Below, in pieces: positions 4,833 through 63,688 of a stretch of DNA of 64,000 nucleotides. Both the position numbers and the translations under genes were made by a program. The stretch is from Patescibacteria group bacterium UBA3291. Its GTDB lineage: Bacteria; Patescibacteriota; Gracilibacteria; Absconditabacterales; Absconditicoccaceae. The notes under the pieces are model-generated. The model did not search any database. It had not been told where the DNA came from and worked only from the letters and a program-made list of their open reading frames with translations. Within the stretch, counting starts at the first letter, position 1, and every line of letters starts with the position of its first letter. The DNA is taken from assembly GCA_002361595.1 (NCBI GenBank), contig DETJ01000039.1:960-64959 (forward strand), written 5' to 3'.

Positions 4833-4903
4833 TTGAAATAATATTATATAAACCTATTTCAGAATAATTTTAGAAACCTAAATTTCAAGAGTATAAAGTC
4901 AGA

Positions 4904-5359: not shown

Positions 5360-5381
5360 CGATGAAATTAATAATTAAATT

Positions 5382-6983: not shown

Positions 6984-7018
6984 TATGCACTAAATATAAA
7001 ATAATTAAAATTTTACGA

Positions 7019-34291: not shown

Positions 34292-34320
34292 TTGCAAAAT
34301 TTTTCTTTCTGTGCTATAAT
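34292..34320 (+). promoter_or_regulatory. Sigma70-like promoter of the giant gene
   Basis: TTGCAA, a 17-nt spacer, then TATAAT. GGAAGGA (Shine-Dalgarno) lies 5 nt before the ATG at 34361. A second TTGACA box is at 34095. Confidence 0.55.
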
Positions 34321-34360: not shown

Positions 34361-37300
34361 ATGAAAAAGTTAGTGAATGTAGTTACACTCGTTGTAATGG
34401 TGAGTGTGAACACGATGACGCCTTTTACTTATGCGTTTGCGCAGTATGATGAGCCTGTGTATTCACAGGAAGTCGTAGAAGTATCGGATGATACGGCAAA
34501 TTCCCAGATATCTGGGCAAGCTACGGCTGGCGACTCATCTAGTGAAACGTGATATGAAGAAAATATCCAGGGTGAATCACCTGTGGATTTTTCTCTAAAT
34601 ACGGAATCACAAACTAGCGCAGAAGTGGATTCTTTGGCTTCGTCTCAGAATGATGGAGAAGTACAAGATTCTTCGCTACGCTCAGAATGACAAGCGTGAT
34701 GAGAAGAAGATTCTTCGACTTTGGCTCAGGATGGCGAGACACCTATGGATTCCTCACATTCGTTCGAAATGACGGATGAGCAAGAAGAGGAGGAAGAATT
34801 GGATTTCACTTGAAAGACCGTAGCAGCTGTGACTAAAATGCTATGATGAAACTGGGAAACTGATTCTGATGGATATGCTGAGGCATTAGGAATCGAAAAT
34901 TATCAAGGTTATCCAGAACAAAATGAAATAATCAGAAATTATATGGTAACTAATAAAACCCTTCCTGAAAAATGACAAAACACACAAGATTTTCATCCAG
35001 CTCAGCTGGACAAGCTTCGTTCAGAATGACAGGTATGAAGTGAATGAGATACACAAATTTCAGATGATGAGGATGGAGAAGATGATGAAGATCCTTTGCC
35101 TGAAGAATGAGACACACAAGATTCTCAGCTAGCTGAGTGAACTTCGCTAGACGCTCAGAATGACATCGAACAGCCAGAATGAGAAGATGAAATGTGATTC
35201 TTCGATGAATTATGAGAAGGAATTCAGAATTTGTTTAATAAAATTAGATATTTCTTCACAGATGAAGAAAATGAATCATATATAATATATAGTGAAGATG
35301 ATAATGATATATGAACTATTACATTAAAAGATCCAGAAACTGCGGCTACTATCACTATTATGGATAGAAATCTATGAGCTGAAAAAGTAAATGACTATGG
35401 ATATTATTTTCAATGGTGAAATAATCACGGAGTAGAAGAAGTAAATTCTACAAACAAAACAACTATTAAAGCTATTTATGATGATAGTTATTATGCTAAA
35501 TGATATGATGGTAATGGTTTATTTATAGTATGAGCCAAAGATTACCGAGAAAATGGAAATCATTATAATAATTTATGGTGATGAGATTTGAAAGAACAAT
35601 ACAAGCAGGCAGCATGTCCTGCATGATACCATGTACCAACTGCCAAAGAATGGAATCAGTTGATGAGTATATGGTGAAAGATTCATACACAGGATGTATC
35701 TGTGGATGAAGAATGACAAAATGTTTCACAGACTAGATATACAGCAAATTCATCAGAAACTAAGATAGCTTCATTTAAAGATCAGGCACAGCAATGTGAA
35801 GAATCTGACACTCAATGTGTGGATGAAGACAATTTTAGTGATATAATCAATATTTTATCATCAGAACTCAGACTTCCTTTAGCTGGAGGTTATGATGAAG
35901 ATGGTAAATATTATGATGAATGATGAATTTATTGGACATCTACAGCCAGAGATGGAGAAAAAGCATTAATTTTCGATATTGATGCTTATTTTGGCATTAA
36001 TGGAGATGACAATTTGGGTTATAAAGCTCAAGGTCATAATATTAGATGTTTCCAGAATGTGACAGAGCGAGATGCTGGAGAAGATATTCAAGATTCTCAG
36101 CAAACTGAGCAAGCTCAGCAAGCTGAGTGAACTTCAGCTGATGCCTCTGAATGACAGGGTGATACAAACAACAACCCGGGTTCAGCCTCAATGACTGACC
36201 AGGATTGAAATGGTGAACAGGATGAGAATGAAGTAGAACCCGGGTTGAATGTGGAAAATTCTTCAGAATGACAAGCTGGAGATGATGAACAAGCTAAAAC
36301 AGATTCTAATATATCTGTTTTAGATTATCTTTTTCATGAGGGAGTCGGTGACTCGGCTTCCTCTCCTTTCCCAGGAGATGAAGGGGATAATTTAGAACAA
36401 AGTTTTACATGAGATGACACACAAGATTCTCAGCTAGCTGAGTGAACTTCTCTAGACGCTCAGAATGACGATGTGCAGGTAGAACTTGACAAAGCACGAG
36501 CAACACTCAATGTAGAACCAATTACAAAAGCTGAAAGGTACAACAGAGTAACGGTAAATGTAGAAGCTCCAGCTGGAACTTTCCCTCAAGGAACTTATGC
36601 AAACATCAGACCAATTGTATCTACAGTCAGACTAGATGAAATCAAAGGACAGATTTCAGAGGAAGATAACACAGTATCAGAAAACTCTGAAGTAGTAGCT
36701 TTTGATATTACATTCATGTACAAATTGAGTGATGGTACAGAGGTAGAAGTGCAGCCTAAAGAAAACACAGTAAAGGTGGAATTTAATTATGAGGATAATG
36801 ATAATCTTTCAAAAGCTGACGAAAATGACTCTCAGGAAGTAAAGATTTTCCACTTGGATAATAAAGATGAGAATGGTGAAAAAGTAGATAGATGAGAAGA
36901 AAAAGTAGTAGATGTGACAAATAAACAGGAAAGTGCAGAAGATGGTATTGTAGTAGCGGATGCTGAAAGTTTCTCAATCTATGTACTTACTTTAAGTGAT
37001 AATTCACATACTTTAACTCTTTATCCAAATTGAGGTACTTTTACAAATAATAATATAATTATAACATGACCATGTGATCAAGAAAATGATCCATCATGTT
37101 CTGGAACAATCACTGTTGATGGTAACTGAGTAGTAGAAGAACCTGTGGTTACAAAAACTAATTATAATTTTGCTGGATGGTATACAAGTACGGATGGTGG
37201 TACAACATTATCTGATACGGCTTTTGATTTTGATACTCCAATTACAGATGATATTACACTTTATGCTAAATGGACAGATTATGTGATTACCTTTGATACA

Positions 37301-40300
37301 GATGGTGGTAGTGATGTAGATCCTATATTTGTAAATGATGGGGATACAGCTACTAGACCAAAAGATCCTACTAAAACATGAAATTATATGTTCTTATGAT
37401 GGTTTGATGCTGCATCGTGAGGAAATAGATTTGAATTTGAAGATAATCTTATTACTTCAGATAAGATTCTTTATGCTCACTGGGCTGAATTTGAGAAGTT
37501 GAATTTCACATGAGTGGTAAAAATTTCAGGATATCCAGATGGAATGGCAACAGTTACGATTATGGATAGAAATTTATGAGCAACTGAAGCATGAATATGA
37601 ACAACAGCCTCAGCAGATTCATATGGATATCTTTATGAATACTGAAATAATCATGGATTTTCACTTGTAAATAAAAGAATTCCTAATGAATATATAAGAA
37701 CAGACCAAGTAGATGTAACGGATTATTCGTGGGAGAATCCATTCTATTCTAAATATTATATAAAAAGGAGTGATAACTGGATGACATCATCTTCTAATAA
37801 AAATTTGTGGTGATGAGCAAATGATATTTTGACAAACTATTATTGAGAAAATATAGATCCTTCTCGTAGACAATGACCATGTCCAGAATGATATCATATA
37901 CCATCTGTGAAAGAATGGTATGATGTAGTTGATATTTTATTTCAGAAGTATGATATTGATGAAAAAACGGATAAAAATTATAAATATCCTGAACAAGTTT
38001 GAAAAAATCCTAAAACTGTTAATGAAGTGAAATATATGTTATGAGATTATTATGATGATATAGAACAGGATTTGAATTTAGTATATTTCTGACGTATAAA
38101 AGAGAATGAAGTCGCAGTTGGTAGAGATGCAAGTTCTGATGATCCGAGAGCTCCATACTGGACATCAAGTGATCATAATAGTAAAGCATTTATTATAGAG
38201 TTTTGATTAAAAGCTAAAGCACTAAGTTTATGATGATTTGAAGAACCTAAACCAAGTGGTTATTGAGTTCGTTGTTTCAAGGATGTACCAGATTATTGAA
38301 TGGTAAAATTTGAATTAAATGGATGAAATTGGGATGTAGAGGATGAATATTTGGCATATAAAAGAGCTGAAGGAATTGAGTTACCATCTGAACAACCAGA
38401 AAAATATGCTTATAATTTTGATGGATGGTATACAGATGATTGAACTTTTGAGGATGAAGTAGTCGATGGAAGATCATTAGATTCAAATGTGACTTTATAT
38501 GCTAAATATGAACCTAAAGATAAATATCTGATAAATTTTGTGGTTGAATGAGCAGCTAGAAGTAAATTGTTAATGGAATGAGAAATCCCTTCTTATGATA
38601 CAAGTTGGCCAGAGCCAGCTAAACCAGATCAGGGTGAATATTCTTATAGATTTGATGGTTGGAATGATGGAACTACAAAATATGACTTAGGTGAAGAATT
38701 ACCTGCTGTTACAGGTCCTGCTACATATACAGCAGTTTTTGAGCAATATATGGTAGATAGGCATAGAGTATCCTATGATATAGATGGAGATGGTCATGAA
38801 GATAATGTAGAGTATGTAAGTAAAGTAGAGGGTGAAAATATTATTACTTTACCAGTAGCTCCAACTAAAGAAGGATATGATTTTGCATGATGGAAAGCTG
38901 ATAATGAAGAAAATGCTAGAGAAGCTGAAAGTTCATATACAGTTACAGGAGATGTAGATTTTACAGCTCTGTGGACACCACATGATTATAGTATAGCGTA
39001 TGACTATGATGGATGAACAGTATCTCAGACTAATCCTACACATTATAATCTTGGTAATAATTCGGTAGATATACATTCTCCATCTAAATCAGGTTATAAA
39101 TTTGTATGATGGAAAGAATATTCTTGTAATGAATCTGATGTGGCTAATTGTCAGAATTGGACATTTGTAAGAGATGTGCTTGTATATGGAGATCCAACTT
39201 CTATTGTAATATGAGGAATAGGACATAAAAAATATGTGGCTCAATGGGTAGAAAATGAGGTGACATATTCAGTGATTTGGCTTGATGATAATCACTCTTA
39301 TATGGGTATTTCGAATGTGCCATTAAATACTATAGCCTCTACAATTACAAATATACCAAATACGGCTAAAGAAGCAGATGCTGAATATACTTATACTTTC
39401 CTTAACTGGACAAAGAAGAGTGGTTCTGATTTTGTAGATGTCGATCTGAGTCAAGAAACTATAACAGATAATATGATATATTATGCGAAATATCAAAAGA
39501 CTAAAAATAAATATTCAGTGACATTTGTAGGTGAGGATGAAACTACAGTTTTACAGGAATCTACTCAGTATGACTATGGAACAACATCAGAAAATATAAC
39601 TATACCTACTGCTCCAGCTAAGCAGTGATATACATTTGATGGATGGTTAAAGAAAATAGGTGATGGTGAATATTCATCTGAAGTGGTAGATATGTCTACA
39701 GAAGAAGTGCAGGCGAATGTAACATATAAAGCTCATTATAGTCCAATTACAGCTGAATATACAATTACATTTGTACTATGAAATGGAGAAAGTGATGTCG
39801 TAATAACTGGACATGAATGAGATTCTGTTATGGCACCAGCTAATCCTACTAGAAATGGATATACATTTGCTGGTTGGAGTCCAACTGTTCCAGCTACAAT
39901 GCCTGCTCATAATGATACAATTACAGCTCAATGGACAGCTAATCAATACACAGTAACATTAAATATAAATTATTGAGAAACTCCTGCAACAAGTGAAATA
40001 ACAGTAACATATGATGATACTTATGGAAACTGATGATTATCAAATCCTACGAGTAGAGCAGGATATACATTTGATGGATGGTATGATGCTGAAACTGAAT
40101 GAAATAAGGTTAAAGCTGATACAGTAGTATCTACAGCAGCTGATCATATTTTGTATGCACATTGGACAGCAGATCAGCATTCAATTACATATAATAATAC
40201 TAAGTGAGCAGAAAATACAAATCCTGCAACGTTTACTACAGATACACAGACTATTAGTCTGAATAATTTGTCAGTAGCTGGATATACATTTAATGGATGG

Positions 40301-43300
40301 TATGATGCTGAAACTGAGTGAAATAAAATAACTCAAATTGTACAGTGAACAACAAATGATGTAGTATTGTATGCTCATTGGACAGCAATACCATATAGTA
40401 TAATTTATACACAAGTGCCAGAAGGTTATGTTGCAACAACTTATAGTTATACGATAGAAAATTCATTTACTATTCCAAATCCTGCAAGTGTAGTATGACA
40501 AACTTTCAAAGGATGGAGAGAATATGTAAAAATTGGTGAAAATGAATGAGAACCAATATGGGAAGAACCTAATCCATGACAGATATATTATAATGCTAAT
40601 GGTATTACAATACAATCGTGAAATATTTGAGATAGAAAATATGAAGCTCAATGGGAAGTAAAAACATATACAGTATTTTGGGTAGATGAAGATTTAGAAA
40701 TTTTGGAGACAGATAATGATGTAAATCATGGAAGCCATCCACAATTTGATGAAACTACTCCAACTAAAACAGATACAGCCGAATGGGATTATGAATTTGA
40801 GACATGGACAAAAAATGGAGTAGATGTTGATATAACTACAGAAACTGTTACATCAAATGTAATATATAAAGCTAAATATTCAGAGACAAAGAAAGAATAT
40901 ACAATTACTTTCGTAAATGATGACAATTCACAATTATCAACTCATGATTATGAATATGGAACAGCTGCAGCTACTATACAGCAGCCTACGGCAACAAAGG
41001 ATTCTACAGCTCAGTATAGATATGAATTTGCAGGTTGGAATCCAGCTCTTGCTCCAGTCACAGGACCTCAGACATATAAGGCTACTTATAATGAAATTTT
41101 GAGACAATATGCAGTAACATTTGTAAATGAAGATGGATCTGATTTACAGTCTGCTACAATGTTTGACTATGATTCACATCCTATTTATAATGGTCCGACT
41201 CCTAAAAAAGTAGTAGATGGTGGTTTTAGTTATTCATTTGATGGATGGTTGAAGAAGGTATGAGATGGAGATTTTGGTACTGATGTTATCAGTGATTTAA
41301 CATCGGAAGAAATTAAGGATACAACAATTTATAAAGCTCATTATACTCAGAGTCTATTTACATATAATGTAACATTAAATCCAAATGGACAATGAAGTGT
41401 AGATCCTTCAATTATTGTTGTAACATATGGTAGTACATATGGTAATTATGATGGACAATCTCATGAAAAATTACCAGAACCTACATGAGATGGTTATGAT
41501 TTTGTATCATGGAATACACAATCAGATGGACAATGAACTACAATAACAGCATCTACATCGGTATGACTAAGTGCTAGAGATCAGATTCTTTATGCTCAGT
41601 GGACACCAAGTGATTATGATCTTGAATTTGTAGATGATAATGAGAGTACTCCATTAGTTCCAAAGACGACTTATACAATTGAAGATACTATAACACTTTC
41701 AGTTCCTACTAAATGAGGATACACATTTATTGGATGGAAAGAGTATGTAGATGGAGTTTATACTAGAGCATATTTAGCTAATGATCTTCCTCTTACTCTT
41801 CCAGCAGGAAATATTTGAGACAGAAAATATGTAGCTCAATGGAATCTGAATGGACATGTAGTAATATGGTTAGATGATGATCAAAGAGTTTTGGATATTG
41901 ATACAAATATACCAGATGAAACTTTGGTTACAGAAATAGAGCCAGCTGAACCTACTAAAGCTCAGGATGATCAATATACATATACATTTGATAAATGGTT
42001 AAAAGAGGTAATAGGTGGAAATCCAGCTGTAGTTCCAGATTGGGATCATGAGAGAGTAACAGCTGATGTGAAATATCAAGCCAGTTATCAACCTCATATT
42101 AGACAATATTCAGTAACATTTGTAGGTGAGAATGGTGAAACTGTTTTACAGCCAGCTGCATTATATGATTATGGAACAACAGCTGCTAATATCACTAAAC
42201 CAGCAGAACCTACTAAAGCAGCCACAGCTGCACATACATATACATTTGTATGATGGAAAGCAAATGGACAGTGAGAACCTATTCCTACCGTTAGCCTTCC
42301 AAATGTAACATGAAATGTGACATATTGGGCATCATTTACTGAAACTACAAATCAGTATGAAGTAACATTTGTAGATGAGAATGGTACTACTGTTTTGAAA
42401 GCAGCAACTCAGTATGATTATAATACACCAGCAGCTTTGATTGAGCAGCCAGCTACACCTACTAAGGCAGAGACACTTTCACACACATATACATTTGCTG
42501 GTTGGAATCCAGCTTTAGCAGATGTAACAGCAGATGCTACTTATACAGCTACTTATACATCCACTCCAAAGCAATATACTATTACACTTAATCCAGATGG
42601 TGGAGTCATTGAATGAGCAGCTACAACCAAAGAAGTAACATTTGGTTCTACTTATTGAGAATTGCCAACTCCTACGAAACTTGGATACACTTTTGGTGGA
42701 TGGTTTGATGCTGATGATACACAGCAACAAAACGAAATAACATCAGCTACAGTAGTGACGACAGATGCTATAAATCAGACACTTAAGGCTAAATGGACAG
42801 TACAAAAATTTAATATTAGATATCTTGAAGATGATAGACAAACTCCAGTGACTGTGTCTGATCCTATGACAATATATACAGTAAAAGATTCTATAGTAAT
42901 TAAAAATCCTACAAAAGAATGACATACATTTATTGGATGGAAAGAGTGTGTAGGAAATGATTGTTCTACAGCATATTTGAAGGATGGAAGTAGTTCAATT
43001 AAAATTCCAGCATGAAAAACATGAGATAGAGATTATTTAGCTATATGGAATGTACACTGACATGTAGTAATTTGGGGAGACTATAATGGTGTAGTTTTGG
43101 AAATAGATCCAAATGTAGATTATGGAGATCCAGTTTCATATGATGTAGAGGATGAAGATCACAATCCAAAATATCCATCTAGAGAAGATACAGCTGAATT
43201 TGATTATGAATTTATAGGATGGACAGACTGAGACAAACATTTTTATCCTATAAATGGAACTCCTGCTATTCCAACAATGTGAGATGCTGATATAACCTAT

Positions 43301-46300
43301 ACAGCTACTTATTCTGAAACAACAAAAAAATATACTATTACATTTGTAGATGCAGATGATACGGAATTGTCAAGTAAAGATTATGAATATGGAACAGCTG
43401 CTAGTGTTATAGTTAAACCAGCATTTAATATACCATCTCCAACTTCACAGTGTGCAGAATATCAGGGGGCATGGGATAAAGAGATAGTAGAAGTGACATG
43501 AGATGAAACATATAAGGCAGAGTATACATGTAAAACTCCTGCTACATATACTATTACATGGAAAAACTATGATGGAAGAATTTTGGAGACAGATGAAAAT
43601 GTTCCATACTGAACATTGCCAGATTATGATGAAGATGCTCACTGAGTACCTACAAAAGATTTGCATGATGGAAAAACATATCTTTTTGAGACTTGGGATC
43701 CTGCTGTTGATGTAGTTACAAAAGATGAAATTTATACAGCAACTTTCACTGCCAATCCAAATGCGTATGGAGTAACATTCAATCCTAAGTGATGAATAGT
43801 AAATCCAAACTATAAGGTAGTAATAAATGGAGAAGCTTATGGAGATTTACCAACTCCTACAAAAGCTGGTTATACATTTGATGGATGGTATTCAGATGAT
43901 GGAACATTCGCAAATGAAGTAAAATCTACAGATACATATACTTTGACAACAAATCAGACTCTTTATGCTAAGTGGAATATAGTAAGTTATAATATTACAT
44001 ATCAAAATGTTGAAGCTAGTTATATAGAAACAGCTCCAGTTACATATACAGTTGAATCTGATGATATTGAAATTCCAAATCCAACTAGAGATGGATATAC
44101 ATTTAAGGCATGGAAAGAATATGTAAAAAATGGTAATTATGTACCATGAGGGGATGAACCAGAGTGGATATTCGAAAGAGACATACTTAGAGATGGAGAT
44201 AATGATATTACTTTACCTGTGTGAAATACATGAGATAGAGAATTTAGGGCTCAATGGGATATAAATCGTTATAAAGTAGTATTTAAGAATTATGATGATA
44301 CTATATTAGATGTGCAGATGTTGGATTATGGAACGCCAGTTACAGCTCCAGCTAATCCTAGCAAACCTAATTCATCTAATGGTCAATTTAGATATGAATT
44401 TGCAGGATGGAAAGCAAATTGAGAATGAGATTTAATTCCTAAAACATCCACTCTTCCAGTAGCGACAGAAGATGTAGATTATATAGCTCAGTTTAATGAG
44501 ATTACTAGAAAATATACAGTTACATTCCAAAATTATGATGAAACTGAATTACAGTCAAGCGATGTAAATTATGGAACAGCTCCAGTTTATGCAGGGGAGA
44601 CTCCAACTAAAGCGAGTACATCACAGTATTCATACACATTTAATGGATGGACAGATGGAACTAGTGAATATGCAAAGGATGCTACTCTTCCAGATGTATC
44701 GTGAGAAACTACTTATACAGCAGTATTTACTCAATCTCCAGTAAAATATACAGTAACATTTAAAGATTGGAATGATGAAATTATTAGTGCTAAAGAATAT
44801 GGTTATGGAACACATGTTGCAGATATAGTTAAACCAGCAGATCCTACTAGAGATGGATATACATTTGCAGGTTGGAGTGAAATCCCAGAAACAATGCCAG
44901 CTCAAGATGTAACAGTAACAGCTACTTATACTATTAATTCATATATAGTTACATTTGATTCTGATGGAGGAAGTGCGGTAGAAGCTGAGACACTAGAATA
45001 TAATACACCAGTTTCTAGACCTACAGATCCTACTAAGGAAGGATATACATTCTCTAAATGGCAAAAAGTAGATGGACAGACTCTTTCAGATTATGATTTT
45101 GCTACACCAGTAACAGCAGATATTACATTAAAGGCAATCTGGACAAAGAATACTTATACAGTAGTATATAAGGATGGAAATAATGATATAACAATTCCAG
45201 ATGCTACTACTAGTTATACAATTACAGATCAAATCACAATTCCAAATCCAGAAAAGGATGGATATACATTTATAGCATGGGAGGAATATGTATGTACAAA
45301 AACTATTAAATCTGAATGTACTTCATCTGATCGAAAGCATACTAGAGATATTCTAAAGTCAGGAGAATCAATTACAATTCCAGCATGAAATATCTGACAT
45401 AGAGAGTATAGAGCACAGTGGAATATAAATAATTATGAAGTAATATTCCAGAATTATGATAGAAGTATCTTGAAAGTACAGAATTTAAATTATGGAGCTT
45501 CTGTAACTGCTCCAGCTGATCCTACTAAACCTGCAGATGCTGAGAAAGTGTATATATTTGATGGTTGGCAAGTAGATGGAGCTGGAGATGTTATTGCGAC
45601 AGCAGATCTTCCAACTGTGTCATGAGATGTACATTATGTAGCACATTTTACAGAATCAGCAAATCAACATACAATTACGTTCAAGAATGATGATGGAACT
45701 GTTTTACAGTCTGGAAAAGTAACTTATAATGAGGCTCCAGTTTATGCATGACAAACTCCAACTAAAGCAAATACAGCACAGTATTCATATACATTCGCTG
45801 GATGGACTAATGGAACTACTGAATATTGAAAAGATGATACACTTCCAGCTGTAACATGAGAAGCTATTTATACAGCAATTTATACTTCAACTGTAAATGA
45901 ATATACAATTACATGGAAATCAGATGCTGATACAACTATTGATACTACGACAGTAGCTTATGGACAAATGCCAACTCATGCTATACCAACTAAAAATGGA
46001 TTTACATTTGATGGTTGGGATCCTGCAGTAGCATTTGTAACATGACCAGCTACTTATGTTGCTACATGGAGAGAATATGAATTGCATTCTTTCTACACAA
46101 AGTGAGGTGATCAGTTTGCTGTAGCATTATATAAAGATGATAAATCATTTGATATTTCGGCTACAGAGCAGGTAAATGGAGGTATAAATGATAGAGCATT
46201 AGCACAATTCTTATTATGAGCTGATGCCGTTGCAGATTTAACAGATGAAGAAGTTAGTGAATTATTAAATAACACACAATTTGAAATTAAAGATATTTCA

Positions 46301-49300
46301 GATTTATGATGAGAAGTATTATTCTTATGATTTACTAATTCAGAAGACAAACCACAGACTAAATGATACTGTTCAGATGCAGGATGTGATTATTTCTCAA
46401 GTTTAGATTCTGATTTGAAAGTGAATGATGCAGTTAGAACTAAATGAATGAATTTAACAAAGGTACAGAAACCATCATGGGTAGATGAACCAGTTAAAAA
46501 TAATAATAAATATAAAGAAGTAAGAGATGCTTCAAACAATTTGAAATGATTTGTAGTATTAGTAAATGATGGATATCTATATGTTCCAGTAATGAAATAT
46601 ACAGTTACATGGGAAAATGCAAATACAACATTGGAGACAGATCAGAATGTTCCATATTCAGCTACTCCAACTTATAATGGAGCTGAGCCAACTAAAGCAA
46701 GAGATGATCAATATACATATACATTTAAATGATGGAGTGATGGAACTGTTTCATATGCAAAGGATGCTACTCTTCCATGAGTATCTTGAAATGTAACATA
46801 TACAGCTGAATTCGATAATACAACAAATAAATATACAGTAAAATTTGTACAGGAAGATGGAATTACACCAATCAAAGTAGATGATAAAGATTCTAAAGAT
46901 TATGATTATGGTACATCTGCTGATGATATAATTGTGCCAGAAACTCCAGCTAAAACTGGATGGAGATTTACTGGATGGACTCCTGAAATTGAAGATGTAA
47001 CAGCAGATGCTACTTATAGAGCAACATATGCAATCAATCAATATACAATAACATTTGTATTAGGAAACGGAGATGAAAATGTTGAAATTACTCAGAATTA
47101 TGGAACAGAAATTACAGCACCAGCTGATTTTACAAGAGAAGGATATATATTTGATGGTTGGGATGTAGAAGTTCCTGAAACTATGCCGGCTGAGAATAAG
47201 ACTATTACAGCTAAGTGGACAGCTAATGAATATACAGTGACATTCAATTCTGGAGAATGAGCAACAGTAGATCCAGCAAGTAAAACAGTAACATTTGATT
47301 CTACTTACGGAGATTTACCTATTCCAACTAAAAAAGGATATACATTTAATGGATGGTATGATGATGAAACTGAATGAAATAAGGTTAAAGCTGATACAGT
47401 AGTATCTACAGCAGCTAATCATACATTATATGCTCAGTGGACAGCTAATGAGTACTCTGTAACATTTAATCCATGAGAATGAGCAACAGTAAATCCAACA
47501 AGTAAAACAGTAACATTTGATTCTGATTATGGAACTTTACCAACTCCAGTTAAAAATGGATATACATTTAATGGATGGTATACAGCTGCTACAGAATGAA
47601 CAAAGGTTGAATCTGATACAGTAGTATCTACAGCGAGTGATCATATATTATATGCTCAGTGGACTATCAATACATATACTATAACATATGATTATGCTGG
47701 ATGAACATTGTCAGACTGAGTTACTAATCCAAATGCATATAATGTGGAAGAATCAGTGAAAATATATGCTCCAAAGAAGACATGATATACATTCAAAGGA
47801 TGGAAAGAATATGTAAAATCTGGAGAAAATTCACGAACATTTGTTCAAGATATCTTTGAATCAGGAGAGTCTATAACAGTTTTAGCATGAGCTACATGAA
47901 ATAAGAAATATGAAGCTCAATGGATACAAAACACATATACTGTAACATTCTATCCTAATGGATGATCTAATATTGATTCTCAGAGTGTATTGTACAATGA
48001 TAAAATTGAAGTTACCACAGCATTACAAAATTTCGCAAATAGTAAAGAATGATATACTTTCAAGGGATGGTATACTACATCTAATTTCGCAGAATGAACT
48101 GAATTTGATTTTAATACTCCAGTGACAGACAGATTAAATCTTTATGCTAAATGGGATAAAGATCGATATACAATTACATATCAATTGAATGGTGGAGAAT
48201 TGACTAATCAATTAGCTCAATATAGTATAGATTTTGTCAGTTGGACAATTCTTAAACCAACTAAAGAATGATACACATTCAAGTGATGGTCTGATGTGGA
48301 AAGTGATATCGAATGAATGCCACAGACTATTTCATTGACTAATCAATGGTTTAGAGATCATGGATTCAAGAATAGAACATTTGTAGCTAATTGGGAGATT
48401 AATCATTATACAGTGAAGTATATGGATGGAGTAGATGAATTGGTAGATTTGAGAGATACAGTAGATCATGGAGATACTATTTCACCTTTACCAGTTCCAA
48501 CTAAAGAATGATATACATTCGTTAAATGGTATAAAGAACCAAAACTTATAAATGAATGGACAGCTACTGACACTGTTACAAGTGATACGACATTATATGC
48601 TAAATGGAGAAAGTATACAGTTTATGGACCATTCTATATGACAGATGGTACAAAATTTAATATAGCATTATTTGATGATGACGGAAGTATAGATATTGAA
48701 TGAACTAAAGCTAATAATGATCCATCAGTTATTACACCAGAGCGTGAACAAGGATTACGTTATTCACAGGCTGAAGTAGTTGAACTTCCAGAATTGTGAG
48801 ATGTATTATTTATCAAATCACCACGTCCTAGTGATCCAACAAAGTCAGATACTAAATGATTCTGTTCTACACAGGCATGTAATTATTTCGCATCAGAAGG
48901 TGCTGAAAGTGTAACACCAGAATTCAAATCTCAGGCAATGGACACAACTAATCCTGAATGACCATCATGGACAGATGGTGCTACTAATTATATGAAGTAT
49001 CATGAAGTCAGAGATGATAATGATAAATTAAAGTGATTCACAGTATTGGTAAGTAAGGGTAATGTGAATGGATATATTTATGTACCAGTTAAGCAATATG
49101 AAGTAATATTTGTGGATGAGAATGGAACTCCAGTTCTAAAACCTGTTACACAGTATGGTTATGGAACTCCAGCTGCTGATATTGTGAAACCAGCTGATCC
49201 TACTAAGGAGGCTACTCAGCAATATACATATACATTTGCCGGATGGAATCCATCAGTTGCAGAAGTAACAGAGGATGCTACTTATACTGCTACTTATACA

Positions 49301-52300
49301 TCAACTGTAAATCAGTATGAAGTAATATTTGTAGATGAAGATGGAACTGAGTTAAAAGAAGCTACAGCATATGATTATGAAACGGCTGCTGCAGATATAG
49401 TTAAACCAGCTGATCCAGAAAAGGAGGGATATACATTTGCAGGTTGGGATCCAGAAGTTGTAGAAGTAACAGATGATGCTATTTATACTGCTACATATAC
49501 AGCTAATTCATATTCAGTACATTTCGATAAGAATGATATAAAAGCTACATGAACTATGTCAGATCAGTCATTCACATATGATGAAGCAAGTAAAGCATTG
49601 ACAGCAAATACATTCTCTAAAGAAGGATATACATTTGCAGGTTGGGCTACTTCAAGTGATGGAGAGGTTGTTTATACAGATGGACAGTCAGTTCAGAATT
49701 TAACATCAGCAGAGGATGGTGTTGTAAATCTTTATGCTAAATGGACAGCTAATACTGATACACCATACATAGTAAAACACTGTAAACAGGATTTAGAAGA
49801 TGAAACTAAATTTGAAGATTGTGAATCTGAAGATAAAGAATGAACAACAGATACAGATACAGCAGCTGGAGCAAAGACATATGAATGATTTACAGCTCCA
49901 AGTGTGATTACACAGGAAAATATTGAATGAGATGGAAGTACAATTGTTGAAATAAGGTATACTAGAAATTCTTATACATTGAGTTATGAATATACAAATA
50001 CTCCAGAATCAACTATGCCAACTTTGCCAGCAGTTGAAACATATAAATTCTGAGCTTCTATTACATTGGCAGAAGTTCCATCAATGAATGGATATACATT
50101 TGAATGATGGCAGGATTTCCCTGAAGGAAATACAATGCCTGCTAATGATGTAACTGTAAAATGAACATGGACACCAGTAAAATATACAGTATCAGTTTTG
50201 ACTAAAACAGATGCTGAAGATTCAGCATTATGATGAGTTGTTTATGGTGCTGGAGACTATGATTATAAGAGTGAAGTTACATTGTTTGCTATACCAAATG
50301 AATGATATGACTTTATTGGATGGACATGGGAATGACAGGATGAATTAGTAAAACCACAAGTTAAGATTATTCAATCATTATTAGCTAATCAAACGCTTAC
50401 AGCACATTTCCAGACTAGTGAACATACTGTAGAATTTGATAGTGATTGATGAACAGCTAGACCTACACAGACTATTAAACATTGATTGAAGGTAATAGAA
50501 CCTGAAGATCCGACTAAAGAATGATATACATTCAATGGATGGTATAATGGAAATGATGAATATAATTTTGATACTCCAGTAACTTCAGATCTTCAATTAA
50601 AAGCACATTGGACAATCAATCAATATACAATCACGTTTGATACAGATGGTGGAACTGAAATAGCTCCAATTACTCAAGATTATAATACAGCTGTAACAGC
50701 ACCAGCAGATCCTACTAAAGATGGATACACATTTGATGGTTGGGATAAGGATATCCCAGCTATAATGCCAGCTGAAGATATGACAATTACTGCTCAATGG
50801 AGTATTGCTCATTATGGAGTAAATTTAGTAGATGATGATCACTCTACACTTAGTCTTATAAGTCATGAAAGTGGAGAAGATATTCAGTATGGAGAAACTG
50901 TTAAAGTTAGTGTTTCATTTGATGATCGTTATCAGTTAGATTCTATATCTTCAAATGAAGTAACTCTAACTAAAGAATCAGATTCTGTATATAGTTTTGT
51001 AATGCCTGCATGATGAGTTGTAGTTACATTAAAATCAAAACCAGTAGAATATAGAATAAAATATAACTGGATAGGATGAGCTTTGGATGATGGAGAAGAG
51101 AATCCAGATACATATAATATAGAAAATTATGATAATCTAGTATTATATAATCCAAGTAAACAGTGATCTATATTTAAATGATGGCAATTGTTTGGTGGAG
51201 AATTCTTTGATGGAGAATGATCACATACAACACAAGTAGAAATTGATTCAGATGAAATTTGAGAGCCTCAGACATTTAGTGCAGTATGGGATGAAGAGGT
51301 TTATCCTATTACATATCATCTATGAGATGAAATACTTGGTATATATTGGGTAAAATATGATAGTTATGCTAATTATATTTCTCAAACTAGAGAATGATAT
51401 GCATTTGATGCGTGGTATACTGATTCAGATTTTGAACTTGAACATAAATACAATTTCTGAAAAGTGACATGACCACTTCATTTATATGCAAGATGGATAG
51501 CATCAGAGCAGACATATCATGTATATCATAAATACTTAAAAGCTGATGGTTCGACAGAAAGAACTCAACATGTACAGTATGCTGTTCATACAGATGATTA
51601 TATTCCTGAAGTACCAAGAAATGAAGATGCAGTGAATGATGGATATTTATTGCCAGAAGTACAGCATATAAGAATTAAAGCATGATCAGATAATGAGGTT
51701 ATTTATATATACGAGAGAGCGCCATTTACTATTACTTATAAGGATGGTAATAAACAAATAGATAAAAAAACAATACTTTATGGAGCAGATATTCCGACTA
51801 TGGTAGCTCCAGTGAAAGAATGATATACATTTGATGATTGGTATTCTGATTCAGAATTGACTCAACCTTATGAGATTCCGGAAACAATGCCGGCTGACAA
51901 TATTGTAGTGTATGCTAAATATGATATAAATAAACATACAGTTAGATATATGGACGGTAATAGAGTACTTCAAAAATTTGATAATGTAGAATATGGATCA
52001 GATTTCCCTACTCTTTCAGAGAATCCTTCAAAGGATGGATATGATTTCGTAGGTTGGGAAACTATTCCAGCTACAATGCCAGATCGTGATGTAGATATTC
52101 AGTCGATATGGGATGCACAGATATTTACTGTTACATTTAAGCATGAAGATGGAACAACTCTTCAGTCAAGTAGTGTAGCATATGGACAGAATCCAAGTTA
52201 TAATGGAGTGACTCCAACTAAACCAGCAACATTAGAGCATATGTATACATTTGTATGATGGAATGATGAAACGACTACTTATGCTCCAGAACAGACTCTT

Positions 52301-55300
52301 CCAGCTGTTTCATGAGATACTGTGTATACAGCAGTATTTGATGAGGATACAAGTAAGTATACAGTAACATTTGTGGATGAGGATGGTGAAACTGTTTTGA
52401 AAGCGACAACTCGATATGATTATCAAACGTCTGTTGCAGATATAATTAAACCAACTAATCCAACTAAAGCGGCTACAGCTGAATATACATATACATTTGG
52501 TGGATGGGATCCAGCTCTTGCTCCAGTGACACAAAATGTAACATATATGGCTACTTATACTCAGACTCCAAATACATATACAATTACATTTAATACTGAT
52601 TGATGAACTCCGAGAAGTTCGATTACAGCAGCATATGGAACTGATATAACAGAGCAGTTGCCAGCAGATCCAGAAAAACAGTGACATCATTTTGATGGAT
52701 GGGATAAGGTTATTCCAGCTACAATGCCATCACATGATATGACTATCACAGCTCAATGGACAAAGTATTATTATAATTTAACATTTAATGCTGCATCTCA
52801 TTCTAAAGTAACTAAGAAAACAACTTCTCAGGATGGTACTTATGCATATAATGATGAAGTAGAAGTCTCTGTTTCAGTAGATGATGGGTATAGATTGAGT
52901 AATATTACAGCTGTAGCTACTACAGCACAGTGAGATCAGGAAGTTAGGCTATATGATCAGTGAAACGGAGTATACTCATTCTTTATGCCAGCTAATCCAG
53001 TGGTTATTTCAACAGAGGTAGAGGCTATTGATTATGGAATTGAATATGATTTGGCAGGTGGAAGTGTGGATGATGAATATCCAGATAGTTATGATATGGA
53101 TCATTTAACACTGACATTGAAGAATCCTATTAGAGAATGATATACATTCAAATGATGGAAAGATGAAAAATGAAGAAATATTAATGCAGGAAATACTACA
53201 ACTACTATTAATATAAATTCATCTGATAAATCAAGTAAGCTATATACAGCACAGTGGGATGTTATTGAATATAATGTGAAATATTATGTGGATGGAATTA
53301 TTAAATGAAATGAAAAAGTTTCGCATAATGAGCAGGCTGATATAACTACTTATAGACCAGAGGTACAAGAATGATATTATTTTGATGGATGGTATTTAGA
53401 TTCACAGAAAGAAAATAGATATACATTGGATGGTGTAGTTGCAGATATTGAATTATATGGATTTGTAATTGCATCAGATCAGTGATATCTAGTAAAGCAT
53501 AGATATGAAAAATTGGATGGATGATATGATGAGATGCAGATTCCTGTAACAGATGGTGTAGTGACTGATCAAATAGTTTCACCAGAATTTGAACCTAAAG
53601 ATTGATTTAAAAATCCTAGTGCTAGAAAGGTAATACAAATTAGGCCTGGATGACTATTGACAAATGAAGTAATCTATGAATATACTAGAGAGAGTTATCA
53701 GGTGACTTATAAAAATGATGGTGAAGATGATCAATATAGAATGGTTAAATTTGAAGATTATATTCCAGTCTTAACTGTTTCATCGAAAACTGGACAAACA
53801 TTCAAAGGATGGTATAAGGTTGAAAATGATGAAGTTACAGATGAAAAATTGACAAATCTGACTACTATGTCTACATCTCCTGTAGTATATAAAGCTGTAT
53901 GGGATGATGAAGAATATACTATTACATTTAATGTGGATGGAGGTAGTGTAATCAATCCAATTACTGGAAAATACTGAGATCCTATTTCAGTGGATGCACC
54001 TACTAAACCTGGATATACATTCGCATGATGGGATCCTGCACTTCCAGACAAGATGCCTGCTGAAAACATGATAGCTACAGCTCAGTGGACTATTAATCAG
54101 CATAAAGTTACATTGACAGATTCAGATCATGTAACATTGAATTATTTAACAGTTCCTGATGCTTGAAATAAATATGATTATGCATCTACAGTATCAGTGA
54201 TAGCACATGTAGATGATGGATATGATTATACTGTGGATAGTGAAGAAGTAGATTTGATTTACAAGTGAGATGGAGTATATCAATTCAAAATGCCAGATAC
54301 TCCAGTAACGATTAGAGCTACAGCTACGGCTAAAACTTATGATATTGATTATATATTAGATGGATGAAGTCTGCCACAGTGAGTATCTAATCCAGTACAT
54401 TATGGTCCTACAGCTCTTACATTAACATTGAATAATCCTGATAGAGATGGATATACATTCAAATGATGGAAAGATGAAACATGAAGATTATTCTATGATG
54501 AAGATTCAGATACTACACAGGTTACAATTAACAATTCTCCATTAGTAGATAAAACATATACAGCGCAATGGGAAGTTAATACCTATCTAGTTAGATTTGA
54601 GATGGATGGACATACTGTAAATCAGCAAGTAATTACTTATAGATGACATGCAAATTATGTAAATCAGTCTAAGGATGGTTATGAATTCCCAGGATGGTAT
54701 ACAGATCCAGATTTTGCACAGTGAACTGAATATAATTTCAATACACCAATCACATCAGATTTGGTATTATATGGAAAGTTTGTCGCTAGTGAGAGTGAAT
54801 ATATAGTTATCCATAAATATTTAAATGTAGATGGAATTACATATAAACCATATGTTGTACATCATACAGATGTTAAGACAGATGATTTTATAGCAGAAGT
54901 TCCTTTTGCACCGAGAGATTGATTTGTAAATCCATCTCCAAAGAGCATAAAGGTTATGGCTAATGCGGAGAATATTGTAGAATATGTTTATCAGAGAGAT
55001 TACTTCGATATTGTTTATGATGTAAATGGTTGAACTCCAGAAGTAGCTACTCAGACAATAATGTTTGGTACTAAGATTCCAGTTCCTGAAGCTCCAACTA
55101 AAGAATGATATACATTTAGATGATGGCAAAAACAGTGAACTACAGAAATTCTGAATGATAATACAATTCTCAATGATGCTCAGACAGTGACTTATGTAGC
55201 ACAGTGGTGAGAAAATGAATATACAATTACATTTGATACAGATGGATGAAGTGCAATAGATCCTATTACTCAGGATTATGGTACAGCTATTACAGTTCCA

Positions 55301-56668
55301 GCAGATCCAACTAAAGATGGATATACATTTGCAGGTTGGGTTCCAGCAATTCCAGCTACAATGCCATTGTGAGGATTGACTGTAAAAGCTCAATGGACAG
55401 CAAATAAGTATACAATTACATTTAATACAGATGGTGGAACTGAAATTGCTCCAATTACTCAGGATTATGATACAGAGATTACACCACCAGCTAATCCTAC
55501 TAAAGAATGATATACATTTGCTGGATGGAATCCTGCACTTCCAGCTAAGATGCCATTGAATGGATTGACTGTAAAAGCTCAATGGTCACTCGGTGGATTT
55601 ACGATTACATTTGATACAGATGGATGAAGTGCAATAGATCCTATTACTCAGGATTATGATACAGATGTAGTTGCACCAGCAGATCCGACTAAAGAATGAT
55701 ATACATTTGCATGATGGGATCCTGCACTTCCAGCTAAGATGCCTGCTGAAAATATGACTATTAAGGCTCAATGGACAGTTAATCAATATACAATTACATT
55801 TGATACAAATGGATGAAGTGCTATCGATCCAATTACTCAGGATTATGGTACACCTCTAATTGTCCCAAATCCTACTAAACCTGGATATACATTTAAGTGA
55901 TGGGATCCTGCACTCCCTGCTACGGTTCCTGCTGGAGATATCGTTGTAGTAGCTCAATGGGAAAAATCATGAGGAAGTAGCTCTGGAGGTGGAGGATGAG
56001 GTGGATGATCATCTAGAAGATCAGAAACTCCACAAGAGAAGGATGACAAAAAATCTGAAGAGAATATGCATGGTTCAGCAGATGATGAAGTAATCCAGAA
56101 TGAAGAAGTAGATAATTGAGATGCTGCTGAAGAATTAGTTATTGAGCCAGAAGCTTTATCTGCATATGAATGGGCTAGGAAATATGATATTACGACTATG
56201 AGTCCAGTTGAAAATGCAGATCCTGATGGATATGTACTTAGATGACATTTGGCAAAGATGGTTGTAAATTATATGGTGAATGTACTTTGAAGAGAAGTGC
56301 CATATGATGTACCGTATGAATGTGTAGCATGGAATGATGATCCATCAATTTGGGAGTCTGATGAGATTAGAGATTATGCAACAAAGTCTTGTGCATTATG
56401 AGTGATGTGAATACAAATGTGGAATAATGAATTTAAGCCAAATGATATAGTAACTAGAGCTGAATTTGGAACAGTGGTATCTAGAATACTATGGTGAGAT
56501 AAATATAATTCTTCGAATACTAAATCAAGATATCGATATACATTACATTTACGTGCTTTGAAGAAAGAGTGAATCATGACTCAAATAACTAGACCAATGA
56601 AATGGTTGGAAATTAGAAAATGGGTATGGGTAGTTATGATGAGGACACAAGAATTCTTGAATAAATAA
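34361..56668 (+). CDS. Giant secreted surface protein (about 7435 aa): signal peptide, acidic linkers, two Fibrobacter-succinogenes-type paralogous (FISUMP) domains, dozens of Listeria-Bacteroides repeats (Flg_new type), MucBP-like modules and an SLH-like C-terminus
   Basis: All 18 track ORFs checked between 36473 and 53977 on the + strand are in frame with 34361. Hand translation of about 5 kb (34361..39300) and of the C-terminus shows only TGA interruptions. The signal peptide is [27 protein letters not shown]. The recurring unit is P.KEGYTF.GW......FDF.TP.T.D.TLYAKW. The stop is TAA at 56666. Confidence 0.85.
34627..34774 (+). repeat. Four tandem REP-like nucleotide units embedded in the coding sequence of the giant gene
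   Basis: Units at 34627..34653, 34666..34691, 34708..34734 and 34747..34774 match the intergenic units at 24163 and 34038. They are translated as [27 protein letters not shown] and DSSHSFEMT. Confidence 0.7.
35320..36060 (+). other. FISUMP-type domain 1 of the giant protein
   Basis: [47 protein letters not shown] and GHNIRCFQN. Confidence 0.7.
37540..38285 (+). other. FISUMP-type domain 2 of the giant protein
   Basis: [47 protein letters not shown] and GYGVRCFKD. Confidence 0.7.
46078..46596 (+). other. Unassigned insert module, copy A, within the repeat array
   Basis: [13 protein letters not shown] ... GEVLFLGF ... [15 protein letters not shown] ... PSWVDE ... [28 protein letters not shown]. 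Confidence 0.6.
48614..49093 (+). other. Unassigned insert module, copy B
   Basis: [14 protein letters not shown] ... GDVLFIKS ... [15 protein letters not shown] ... PSWTDG ... [32 protein letters not shown]. Confidence 0.6.
56150..56665 (+). other. SLH-like cell-wall-binding C-terminal region of the giant protein
   Basis: After a GGGGGGGG/Ser spacer: [12 protein letters not shown]...[18 protein letters not shown] ... [15 protein letters not shown]...[20 protein letters not shown]. This follows the SLH-type pattern W...GI..G....F.P...ITRAE. Confidence 0.5.
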
Positions 56669-56678
56669 TCTCATAGAA

Positions 56679-56716
56679 AAAGAATCTGAACTTTATTGTT
56701 TGGATTCTTTTTTTTG
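56679..56716 (+). terminator. Probable terminator of the giant gene
   Basis: Stem AAAGAATC/GATTCTTT with a 16-nt loop, followed by a T-run. Confidence 0.5.
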
Positions 56717-56788
56717 TCTGAAACTTGAAAAATTTATAGATAAATTTATACAGATTGTGTATGTTTTTGATTTTATTATTGATTTTGA

Positions 56789-57781
56789 ATGCTGCAGGGT
56801 AGACAATGATATGAATCTGTATTTAATGTAAAGGGAGATAAGGTTTTGCTCGTGTGATTTTGGTGATTCAAAAATATGTGAGATGAATTAATCTTACTAT
56901 GAAATATAAAATTATTGCAGAAACAGTGAAAAAAAATATTTATAGTTTCTCAAGATAATAAGTGGTTAAAAATATTTCTATCAAAAGAAGTTGATTGTTC
57001 AGATATTACATTTTTAGATGAACTTCCAAGGGGATTTAGGAGTACATTTAAATATCTTAAGAAGAATGGATTTAGTCAGATTAAAGATTCTTGGAATATT
57101 GATACAGTGATTCTTGGATGAGGTGAAATATTGACTGAAGAATCTCCACATTCGTATTATTATCGATTCTGGTCTATCTGGCCAAGTTTGCTATTAAGGA
57201 GAAATCTGTATATTATGTGAGGTGTACAAATTCCTAAAAAAACAATCAATAAACTATTATTCAATTTGATACTTAGAAATACCAATAAAATTTACTGTAG
57301 GGATTTTGAATGAGTATCAGAATTGAAAAAATATTGATTTGAAAATGCTGAATTTTTTATGGATACGAGTTATTATGTGAGAAATGATTGGAAAAAATAT
57401 TTACATAAAAATGCAAAGAAATACATTGTTGTGAATATAAACAAGAATGGTAAACAGTTTATGGATGATCTCAAAAAGGAAGTAAAAATATATTTGGATA
57501 AATGATATGAATGTTATTTTGTGCCAGTATGTGATGGATGGACAGATGATGACAATAGATTCTTCTCTGAAATACAAAAAGATTTTCCGTCAATAAAATT
57601 GAAAAAATGGGATGATGATTTTGAAAAATTTTTGCAGTTTTTATGATGAGCTGAAATCGTAATAAGTGCTAGATTGCATTTATATTTAATTAGTGAATAT
57701 ATTTGACTAAATACGAAAGTTTTTCCATATCAGAAAAAAATCAACAAAATGCAAAAGGTTATATCAGAGATTGAATTGTAG
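56789..57781 (+). CDS. csaB: Polysaccharide pyruvyl transferase (CsaB family)
   Basis: KVLLVGFWGFKNMGDELILLGNIKLL (family pattern G.YG..N.GDE.IL), VILGGGEIL, YCRDFEGVSELKKYG and GGAEIVISARLHLYLIS. Confidence 0.75.
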
Positions 57782-57806: not shown

Positions 57807-58736
57807 ATGAAATTTTCTGTAATAGTACCAGTATATAATGAAAAAAACTCAATCTGAAAACTTTTGGATTCATTATATTCTCAGACTAGAAAACCAGATG
57901 AAATTATAATAGTGGATTGATGATCTAAAGATTGAACATATGAAATTTTACAGGAAGAAGAGAAGAAATGAAAAATTAAACTTTTGAGAAATCCTGTTCG
58001 TCAATGAAATATAGCTAGATCTAGGAACTTGGCTATAAAAAATAGTTCATATGATTTGATATTGTGTACAGATGCAGGTAATCAGTTGAATAAAGATTGG
58101 TGTGAATCTTACCTGAAAGTATATGAAATAACTGATGAAAAAGTAGTTTGATGAAAATCTGAATTTATAGCTACGACTAAATTTCAGAAAAATTGTATTC
58201 CTCGTTTGACATCTAAAGTGCCAAATTTCCCATCTAGAAATGTATCTTTTTATAAGCAAGCTCGAAAAGATGCATGATGATATCCAGAATTTTTAACTCT
58301 TTGGGCAGAGGATACTTATTTTAATAATAGGCTCAAAGATGCAGGATATCATTTTTATTACTGTAAAGATGCAGTAGTAAAGTGGGAACTTAGAAAAAAT
58401 TATTATGAAATATACAAAATGTATAGAAATTATACTCAGTGAGATGCTGAGGTTCTCATTGCTAAATGAAAAAACCAGAGCATTTCAATTAAGCAATCGA
58501 TTATATTTGTATGTTTCTTTTTGTGTCTATTTCTTTCAATATTTGTACTGAAATGGTGGTTTATTCCAGTTGTGATTTTATGATTAATTGGAATCTGATT
58601 GTACAAAAGGACTCCAGGATGATTCCGATTTGATTTGCATTTTAGTTGTGCAAAAATTGTATGAATGACGGTCTGATTCATTAAGTGAATTTTTTCTTGA
58701 TTGCGTATTCGTATGAGGGAAAAGAAGAAAAAATAG
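57807..58736 (+). CDS. Family 2 glycosyltransferase with C-terminal TM segments
   Basis: MKFSVIVPVYNEKNSIGKLLDSL, IIIVDGGSKDGT, LCTDAGN, and PSRNVSFYKQA-CGA-KDAGGYPE. Confidence 0.8.
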
Positions 58737-63654: not shown

Positions 63655-63688
63655 ATAGTTGTTTTTATTTATGACCCCGGGGTCCATT

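Follow-up and report, generated by a model that had tools for sequence, protein, structure and literature searches.

The window analysed here, i.e., the whole stretch of 64,000 nt (64 kb) from contig DETJ01000039.1 of Patescibacteria group bacterium UBA3291 (assembly GCA_002361595.1, positions 960 to 64,959 of the forward strand), is dominated by a single giant gene encoding a putative repeat-built surface adhesin. According to an earlier note made from the sequence alone, one frame takes up a third of the window; this frame has now been delimited exactly and occupies 34.9% of it (Table 1). It begins with the ATG at 34361 and ends with the TAA at 56666–56668, its length is a multiple of three, and it contains 229 in-frame TGA codons, no TAG and no internal TAA. 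The predicted protein has a mass of 828 kDa and an isoelectric point (pI) of 4.3. Its architecture comprises a head region with two FISUMP domains, a long stalk of Flg_new repeats interspersed with four modules of another kind (M modules) and two orphan inserts, and a C-terminal tail of the SLH type. A ribosome-binding-site-like sequence, GGAAGGA, was found 5' of the ATG, and an alternative in-frame ATG is present at 34349, four codons upstream. A promoter-like TTGCAA-17-TATAAT arrangement at 34292–34320 is no better than expected by chance. Directly 3' of the stop codon (56669–56720), an AAGAATC...GATTCTT hairpin followed by T8 resembles a terminator; it was rejected in the terminator scan because of its long loop and the few G-C pairs in its stem.

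Table 1. Coordinates of the giant gene, of the segments of its product and of the neighbouring genes (window positions; residues are those of the giant protein).
Feature	Position	Strand	Residues	Remarks
Giant coding sequence	34361–56668	+	1–7435	22,308 nt, 7,435 codons + TAA; code 25 (UGA = Gly)
Signal-peptide-like N-terminus	34361–34444	+	1–28	MKK, hydrophobic core, AFA/Q; by inspection
Acidic low-complexity segment	34445–35260	+	29–300	26% D+E, pI 4.05; no Pfam match
FISUMP / Fib_succ_major 1	35339–36049	+	327–563	PF09603; TIGR02145 39.7 bits
Second acidic low-complexity segment	36083–36466	+	575–702	shares 35-nt exact repeat with the first
Conserved unknown-fold domain	36467–37009	+	703–883	46% identical to the same position in L008
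Two Flg_new units between FISUMP domains	37070–37480	+	904–1040
FISUMP / Fib_succ_major 2	37538–38281	+	1060–1307	TIGR02145 37.1 bits
Stalk	38300–55957	+	1314–7199	~67 Flg_new-type units, Flg_new_2, four M modules, two inserts
Orphan insert 1	46067–46597	+	3903–4079	conserved CxxxxC loop
Orphan insert 2	48605–49096	+	4749–4912
M module 1	49742–49972	+	5128–5204	'Y.V.H.Y' 77-aa module
M module 2	51494–51724	+	5712–5788
M module 3	53462–53695	+	6368–6445
M module 4	54779–55003	+	6807–6881	P0027 is the orthologous fragment
Gly/Ser-rich, then acidic flexible linker	55958–56125	+	7200–7255
Divergent triple-SLH module	56126–56665	+	7256–7435	from fold of homologue, Arg residues
ORF33, Polysacc_synt-type flippase	32330–33871	+		directly upstream
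ORF35, CsaB-like polysaccharide pyruvyl transferase	56789–57781	+		PF04230, 62 bits, above cutoff
ORF36, family-2 glycosyltransferase	57807–58736	+		wall-polymer cluster
ORF37, Wzx/Polysacc_synt-type flippase	58737–60041	-
ORF38, S-layer-like	60563–63526	+		987 aa; SR1 homologues

When the window is read with translation table 11, the region of the giant gene splits into open reading frames (ORFs) of at most 227 aa; with TGA as a sense codon, the entire window resolves into 39 ordinary ORFs. As for the meaning of this codon, TGA occurs 25 times at the conserved Gly of the repeat motifs (PTK-x-G-YTF, F-x-G-W, D-x-DG-G) and at none of the 27 conserved Trp positions. In the alignment with an orthologue found on a metagenome contig (L052, described below), the TGA codons of the window stand opposite TGA in 103 cases, GGA in 28, GGT in 4, other codons in 15 and TGG in none. 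The repeat motifs and the orthologue alignment both support UGA as Gly (code 25), the code on which the earlier reading had relied, and the same counts at Trp motif positions and of TGG rule out code 4 (UGA = Trp). TGA accounts for 41% of the Gly codons of the giant gene vs. 65% in 36 other ORFs (Fisher test, p ~1e-19), and its G+C content at third codon positions (GC3) of 0.15 is native for the window. This suggests selection against UGA, as in the neighbouring ORF38, rather than foreign origin.

The sequence was assembled from short metagenomic reads, the encoded protein is highly repetitive, and long antisense ORFs likewise arise under code 25; all three facts could fit an assembly artefact or a pseudogene, i.e., a chimeric or collapsed array, or a decaying gene that stays open by a chance lack of TAA and TAG. 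This explanation has to account for 7,435 codons without either stop at 66% A+T and for coherent domain matches in every segment of the protein. The DNA copies of the repeats are only 60–83% identical, with a single 51-nt stretch at 94%, and the longest exact repeats inside the gene measure 55, 52 and 35 nt. Since these are shorter than the sequencing reads, nothing would have led a short-read assembler to collapse the array. In addition, the window is identical to ENA scaffold SHIW14-1_SAMN02144231 scaffold_396 (72.5 kb) and to Logan and JGI contigs of the flanks, and positions 44098–46682 have a collinear counterpart, 97.8% identical and with the frame open, in a 2.6-kb JGI contig (L051) of a different sample.

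Contigs from two further metagenomes provided a collinear orthologue. L052 (Ga0265299, 38.5 kb) carries 6,843 codons in one frame without interruption, which is open at either end of the region fetched, and L053 (Ga0310696) overlaps it over 8,568 nt at 100% identity and extends to the stop codon. The combined orthologue comprises at least 7,358 codons, its DNA is 72–83% identical to that of the window, and the order of modules is the same: it has two inserts, four M modules, over 71 Flg_new units and the same tail, and the same pyruvyl-transferase gene lies directly downstream. L052 differs from the window gene in carrying additional repeat units. Third-position differences prevail in the two best-aligned blocks (2,747 codons), where the crude ratio of nonsynonymous to synonymous substitution rates (dN/dS) is 0.31–0.42. 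The short exact repeats, the independent contigs, the orthologue and the dN/dS values together make an artefact or a pseudogene very unlikely; the giant gene is a real single gene under purifying selection. No in-frame TAA or TAG, no frameshift and no collapsed repeats, which had been named beforehand as possible grounds for failure, were found, as far as short reads allow. On the opposite strand, frames with only TAA and TAG as stops are open at 50719–54237, 42102–43700, 54255–55481 and 55741–56982 (up to 1,172 codons); these antisense frames within or beside the giant gene were treated as shadow ORFs of the repeat-rich sense frame.

The C-terminal module of the giant protein matches 45 loci in reference genomes. 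The named ones belong to Absconditabacteria (candidate division SR1), including human oral HOT-345, and the remaining loci come from metagenome-assembled genomes (MAGs), some of them auto-labelled 'Peribacteria'. [quoted passage not shown] The same sequence occurs in run SRR1206671 from the sheep-rumen work of Shi et al. 2014 (PMC4158751). The SR1 relatives and the sheep-rumen run thus identify the organism as a rumen SR1 bacterium. No close reference genome was found in the scan, the best tail identity being 54%. Two SR1 proteins, L008 (2,815 aa) and L009 (1,907 aa), have the same head-stalk-anchor plan and share with the giant protein the unknown head domain (46% and 45% identity, respectively), FISUMP, Flg_new units and the tail (52% and 54%). 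They differ in having just 12 and 5 Flg_new units and, according to BLAST, neither inserts nor M modules; the L052/L053 orthologue also shares with the giant protein both inserts, the four M modules and the downstream CsaB-like gene. On the basis of this shared plan, the giant protein and its orthologue are regarded as greatly expanded members of a family of putative SR1 adhesins.

The tail was examined at the level of profiles and of structure. In the search with the SLH profile, 18 of 23 members of the tail family match at E ≤ 1 (best value 2.8e-4), and comparison of the tail family profile with PDB gives Sap-SLH as the sole match (E ~0.9). The AlphaFold2 model of the homologous tail P0020 (pLDDT 88.3, pTM 0.86) shows three helix-loop-bridge-helix repeats. 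According to the Foldseek search of PDB, the top 15 matches of this model are all SLH trimers (Paenibacillus alvei SpaA-SLH and Bacillus anthracis Sap-SLH), with probability 1.00 and template-modelling (TM) scores of 0.65–0.73 over the full length at 11–14% identity, and the next match has a TM score below 0.25. Many of the 15 matched structures contain a pyruvylated ligand. Known structures of SLH trimers show that the pyruvate of the ligand is bound by the TRAE Arg, which sits at the N-terminus of the core helix (PMC6081394). The residues at this position in the window are R7294 (LRGH), R7366 (TRAE) and R7419 (IRKW); the corresponding columns are invariant or nearly so in 22–23 homologues, and every long helix of the P0020 model begins at the conserved Arg. 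Since both the fold and the key residues match, the 'SLH-like tail' of the earlier note is correct at the level of fold, despite a failed sequence threshold, and the modelled fold confirms the tail as a divergent triple-SLH module of the wall-binding type.

The best database match to the tail is 84% identical, and the full giant protein is absent from the protein database searched. The exhaustive search with the tail profile found 6,656 clusters (50% identity) at E ≤ 1e-3 and 870 at E ≤ 1e-30; among the best 150 carriers, the longest has ~2,500 aa. Reference genomes mostly have the module at the N-terminus of S-layer-like proteins of ~1,000–1,100 aa homologous to ORF38, and it is C-terminal in nine ORFs of 417–2,815 aa. 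A related organism represented by L004 and L005 (ENA XIEF21 samples) has a protein of 1,144 aa in which a signal peptide and an acidic N-terminus are combined with the same SLH-type tail; its gene, which in L004 includes an N-run, adjoins the ribosomal-protein/secY cluster and not csaB. The SLH family in the SR1 lineage is large yet invisible at curated hidden Markov model thresholds. The database translations of SR1 contigs read UGA as Trp, so that conserved Gly sites show an artefactual W in the homologues (e.g., CALWVMW where the true sequence is CALGVMG). Such mistranslation lowers profile scores and may help to explain why SLH has been missed in this lineage. Code-4 gene calls give Trp at each UGA-encoded Gly, which matters for surveys of envelope systems across bacteria.

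As for the neighbouring genes, ORF35 directly follows the giant gene. Its sole NCBIfam match is TIGR03609 (CsaB), found over the full length with 79 bits (E = 3e-22) against an equivalog cutoff of 213, and ORF35 is presumed to make the SLH ligand. A CsaB-like gene lies directly 3' of the orthologue in L053 too, and in six other SR1 loci CsaB-like genes are found near SLH-bearing S-layer-like genes, mostly 3–4 kb upstream. The flippase ORF33 is 66–67% identical to genes in L031 and L050, loci that also have an SLH-module gene.

The head region begins with a signal-peptide-like N-terminus of the same kind as in the L005 homologue. The acidic N-terminal segment noted earlier is readily delimited (Table 1), and the two FISUMP domains are also borne out: PF09603 scores 62 bits over two stretches, above the Pfam cutoff of 33.9, while TIGR02145 gives 39.7 and 37.1 bits on the single domains, slightly below its cutoff of 41.65. 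FISUMP motifs have been grouped with DUF1566/DUF823 C-type-lectin-type ligand-binding regions and with surface lipoprotein domains (PMC5758913). The segment between residues 703 and 883 had been called Ig-like; it has no match to Big or Ig-like profiles, or to any other entry, in Pfam, NCBIfam or PDB sequences, and the label is not supported. Diversification of the FISUMP heads by a diversity-generating retroelement was also considered. No template-like repeat of either domain occurs in the window, and a scan of the window for the YxDD motif of reverse transcriptases, made without a reverse-transcriptase profile search, found only a chance motif in ORF38; this candidate was set aside.

The stalk makes up 85% of the protein and consists of about 76 small domains, namely, ~69 Flg_new units (~67 of them past the second FISUMP domain), 3–4 Flg_new_2 units and the four 77-aa M modules. 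The Flg_new profiles (PF09479, TIGR02543) score 360–660 bits in each third of the protein (cutoff 27), with E-values of 1e-110 to 1e-204 and 11, 17 and 20 individually significant stretches in Pfam. In total, 46–48 units are individually significant in Pfam, and a self-trained profile finds 64 (strict) or 69 (relaxed). Flg_new_2 scores above the Pfam cutoff, with units at residues 5291–5352, 5480–5563, 6133–6224 and 6584–6659. The Listeria-Bacteroides-type repeats of the earlier note and their two flavours are thus well founded; what it had missed is Flg_new_2, the inserts and a third flavour, the longer 'GWKEYV...GDRxYxAQW' type (GDRKYxAQW), which brings the number of flavours to at least three. 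In the last third of the stalk, a super-repeat of ~440 aa (Flg_new, Flg_new_2, long Flg_new, Flg_new, M, Flg_new) occurs three times.

The four Y.V.H.Y modules had been placed correctly and named MucBP-like; the MucBP assignment (PF06458) fails every sequence test. None of the four has a Pfam match even at E ≤ 10, M2, the sole module scanned against NCBIfam, has none there, and the four-module profile finds nothing relevant among PDB sequences, including no MucBP structure. The hhalign comparison of the M profile with the Flg_new profile of the giant protein itself gives a probability of 0.9%. P0027, the orthologous fragment of M4, gives a low-confidence model (pLDDT 62.9) with a beta-beta-alpha-beta-beta topology; Foldseek finds no match to this model at E ≤ 0.001, the TM scores being 0.31–0.47 to protein L, BofC, ubiquitin-like domains and lmo0835, with the mucin-binding domains of Listeria lmo0835 at a non-significant 0.36–0.40. 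Given a weak model with non-significant beta-grasp matches, 'MucBP-like' is at most a guess about topology. Homologues of the M modules are limited to three fragments, all from close relatives.

The two orphan inserts, 164–177 aa long, are paralogous (34% identity, E = 1e-28). The insert domain has no match in Pfam, NCBIfam or PDB, and none was found in a search of 5.8 billion proteins; among metagenome contigs, the orthologue alone provides homologues. Compared with this orthologue, the inserts are 83–87% identical in amino acid sequence (insert 1, 87%) with dN/dS of 0.17–0.28 (insert 1, ~0.17) and are the most conserved parts of the protein between the two species.

By a fibrillar adhesin is meant here, in operational terms, a secreted protein with an anchor at one end, a repeated stalk and a binding domain at the other end. 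The giant protein has this polarity, with a signal peptide (by inspection), distal FISUMP domains, a stalk and a wall anchor. Taken together, domain content and modelled fold point, with a probability of about 0.7, to an SLH-anchored fibrillar adhesin of a rumen Absconditabacterium. The protein would be exported by the Sec pathway and its tail held non-covalently by a pyruvylated wall polymer, which would be made by the products of the neighbouring genes (the CsaB-like pyruvyl transferase, the family-2 glycosyltransferase and the two Wzx-type flippases). The Gly/Ser linker and a semi-rigid stalk of 6,300 residues and ~76 domains may keep the N-terminus at a large distance from the wall; at 3–4 nm per domain (our own estimate), the stalk would reach ~0.25–0.3 µm, about one cell diameter. 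At the far end, the two FISUMP domains, the conserved unknown domain and the acidic segments would bind the target, and the two mid-stalk inserts probably add a binding or mechanical function.

The most probable target is a glycan on the surface of the bacterium that hosts the epibiotic CPR cell; the known lifestyle of the lineage suggests a ligand on a host bacterium. The same protein with the same anchoring could instead serve to bind plant fibre, rumen biofilm matrix, protozoa or epithelium. The sample comes from sheep rumen, FISUMP is named after the fibre-adherent Fibrobacter succinogenes, in whose cell envelope such proteins occur (PMC4619616), and giant proteins with Listeria-Bacteroides repeats occur typically in non-epibiotic gut Clostridia (bioRxiv 10.1101/2023.11.21.568195). 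However, the Absconditabacteria studied to date live as obligate epibionts on other bacteria or prey on them (PMC8080830, PMC13059738), and the Pfam scan of the giant protein found no carbohydrate-binding module or dockerin; a target other than a bacterial host is considered rather unlikely.

A structural role was also weighed, in which the protein would form a coat of long SLH-anchored fibres for spacing, for protection against phages or proteases, or for cell-cell stacking. The anchor is common to the S-layer-like protein family, the fibrous surface of Vampirococcus has been attributed to giant proteins (PMC8080830), and the stalk accounts for most of the length. A coat does not explain why the distal end carries two domains of a ligand-binding type, which are kept in the smaller homologues, and the head-stalk-anchor polarity is that of fibrillar adhesins; this role is judged improbable.

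The reading as an SLH-anchored adhesin of a bacterial host is weakened by several points. The tail scores 16.8–17.5 bits with Pfam SLH (PF00395) over 15 aligned residues, below the gathering threshold of 20.8. The fold was modelled for P0020, which is 48% identical to the window tail and has genuine Gly codons, with 21 relatives as the alignment. ORF35 lies far under the CsaB equivalog cutoff, which leaves pyruvylation putative, and the signal peptide was assigned by eye. About 8% of the protein (the inserts, the M modules and the domain formerly called Ig-like) has no family match, the exact number of repeats is that of short-read assemblies, and plant fibre, biofilm matrix or other cells could be the target instead of a host.

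Anchoring by SLH with CsaB is a well-documented system of Firmicutes (PMC6081394, PMC6030368). With the SLH proteins of this phylum (P. alvei SpaA/SlhA, B. anthracis Sap and BSL), the giant protein shares the three-pronged fold (TM 0.65–0.73 to 6CWN, 6CWC and 3PYW), the Arg opening each core helix, the occurrence of the module at either terminus and the adjacent pyruvyl-transferase gene. In contrast, its tail is only 11–14% identical to them, the GIIxG motif is altered (DITTM / GVMG / GIMTQ), and TRAE is canonical in repeat 2 only; it belongs to a CPR organism using code 25, carries a passenger of 7,200 aa and is accompanied by a very distant CsaB homologue.

Giant proteins of 10,000–30,000 aa with Listeria-Bacteroides repeats are known from gut Clostridia (West-Roberts et al., bioRxiv 10.1101/2023.11.21.568195). 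These and the InlB B-repeat class resemble the giant protein in having tens of Flg_new units, a mammalian gut habitat and presumed surface binding. The giant protein differs from the clostridial ones in phylum and code, and in its FISUMP heads, SLH-type anchor, lineage-specific M modules and orphan inserts. Within the lineage itself, Vampirococcus lugosii has giant surface proteins of up to 4,163 aa (PMC8080830), and the 'S. methylophilicida' MAGs (Smet_RSA, Smet_MG) encode 31 proteins longer than 1,500 aa and 8–10 SLH proteins (PMC13059738). Large secreted surface proteins have been proposed to act in host recognition and attachment in Absconditabacteria (PMC8080830, PMC13059738); these giants carry WD40, PKD, DUF11, integrin, FN3 and other domains, and the 7,435-aa Flg_new/FISUMP architecture is not described in those two papers. 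The earlier remark that such a size is unusual was overstated for this lineage in view of the Vampirococcus protein, though the giant protein is nearly twice the largest size reported.

In one survey, SLH and CsaB were concluded to have been lost in CPR (bioRxiv 10.1101/2021.05.31.446380). It is conceivable, and is put forward tentatively as a possibility with the odds against it, that Absconditabacteria have kept a cryptic, strongly diverged SLH-CsaB anchoring missed by profile thresholds, which would serve both the S-layer-like protein and the giant adhesin, and that the inserts are new binding modules. If true, this anchoring would contradict the view taken in the survey, and the orphan inserts would help to set the host range of rumen SR1. 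New elements are this architecture, the size of 7,435 aa, the pair of orphan modules and the fact that SLH is explicitly linked with a CsaB-like gene in a CPR lineage; since known building blocks are combined for a known purpose, the advance is incremental. Animal-associated Absconditabacteria are uncultured and their hosts unknown, and a conserved 828-kDa surface protein, predicted to be exposed, offers a concrete handle: its heads could be used as probes for the host or ligand in rumen samples, and its tail to test the use of SLH and pyruvylated polymers by CPR bacteria.

Several observations concern other genes of the window. The SR1 homologues of ORF38 (32–36% identity, ~1,030–1,100 aa) carry at their N-terminus a signal peptide and the same SLH-type module, and ORF38 aligns with them only from homologue residue ~190–200, retaining just the last helix and a Cys-rich linker (CEDPMIKAACLLDSDKCPAEC). 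The 520 nt 5' of ORF38 (60042–60560) contain no open frame and no Rfam match, and the idea of a missing 5' exon or a structured RNA there was rejected; ORF38 may be a copy truncated at its 5' end, a silent cassette or a gene that has been disrupted. TGA makes up 11% of its Gly codons vs. 65% in other ORFs, and its full-length S-layer-like homologues in other SR1 genomes likewise avoid this codon.

ORF10 (13432–14226, + strand), named by eye as thymidylate-synthase-like, has TGA at none of its 18 Gly codons, with a GC content of 0.44 and a GC3 of 0.39, the means for window ORFs being 0.29 and 0.19; it appears to have been acquired recently from an organism that uses the standard code. ORF28 (29230–29811, +) and ORF29 (29848–30585, +) are tandem VanY-type D-Ala-D-Ala carboxypeptidase paralogues with identical last 30 residues; the former has no leader and matches Pfam VanY, and the latter, with a lipoprotein-like leader, was assigned by similarity to it. 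Finally, ORF39 (63671–64000, +), which is cut by the end of the window, has an N-terminal 'YHVYNRG' that by eye resembles IS200/RAYT-type transposases.

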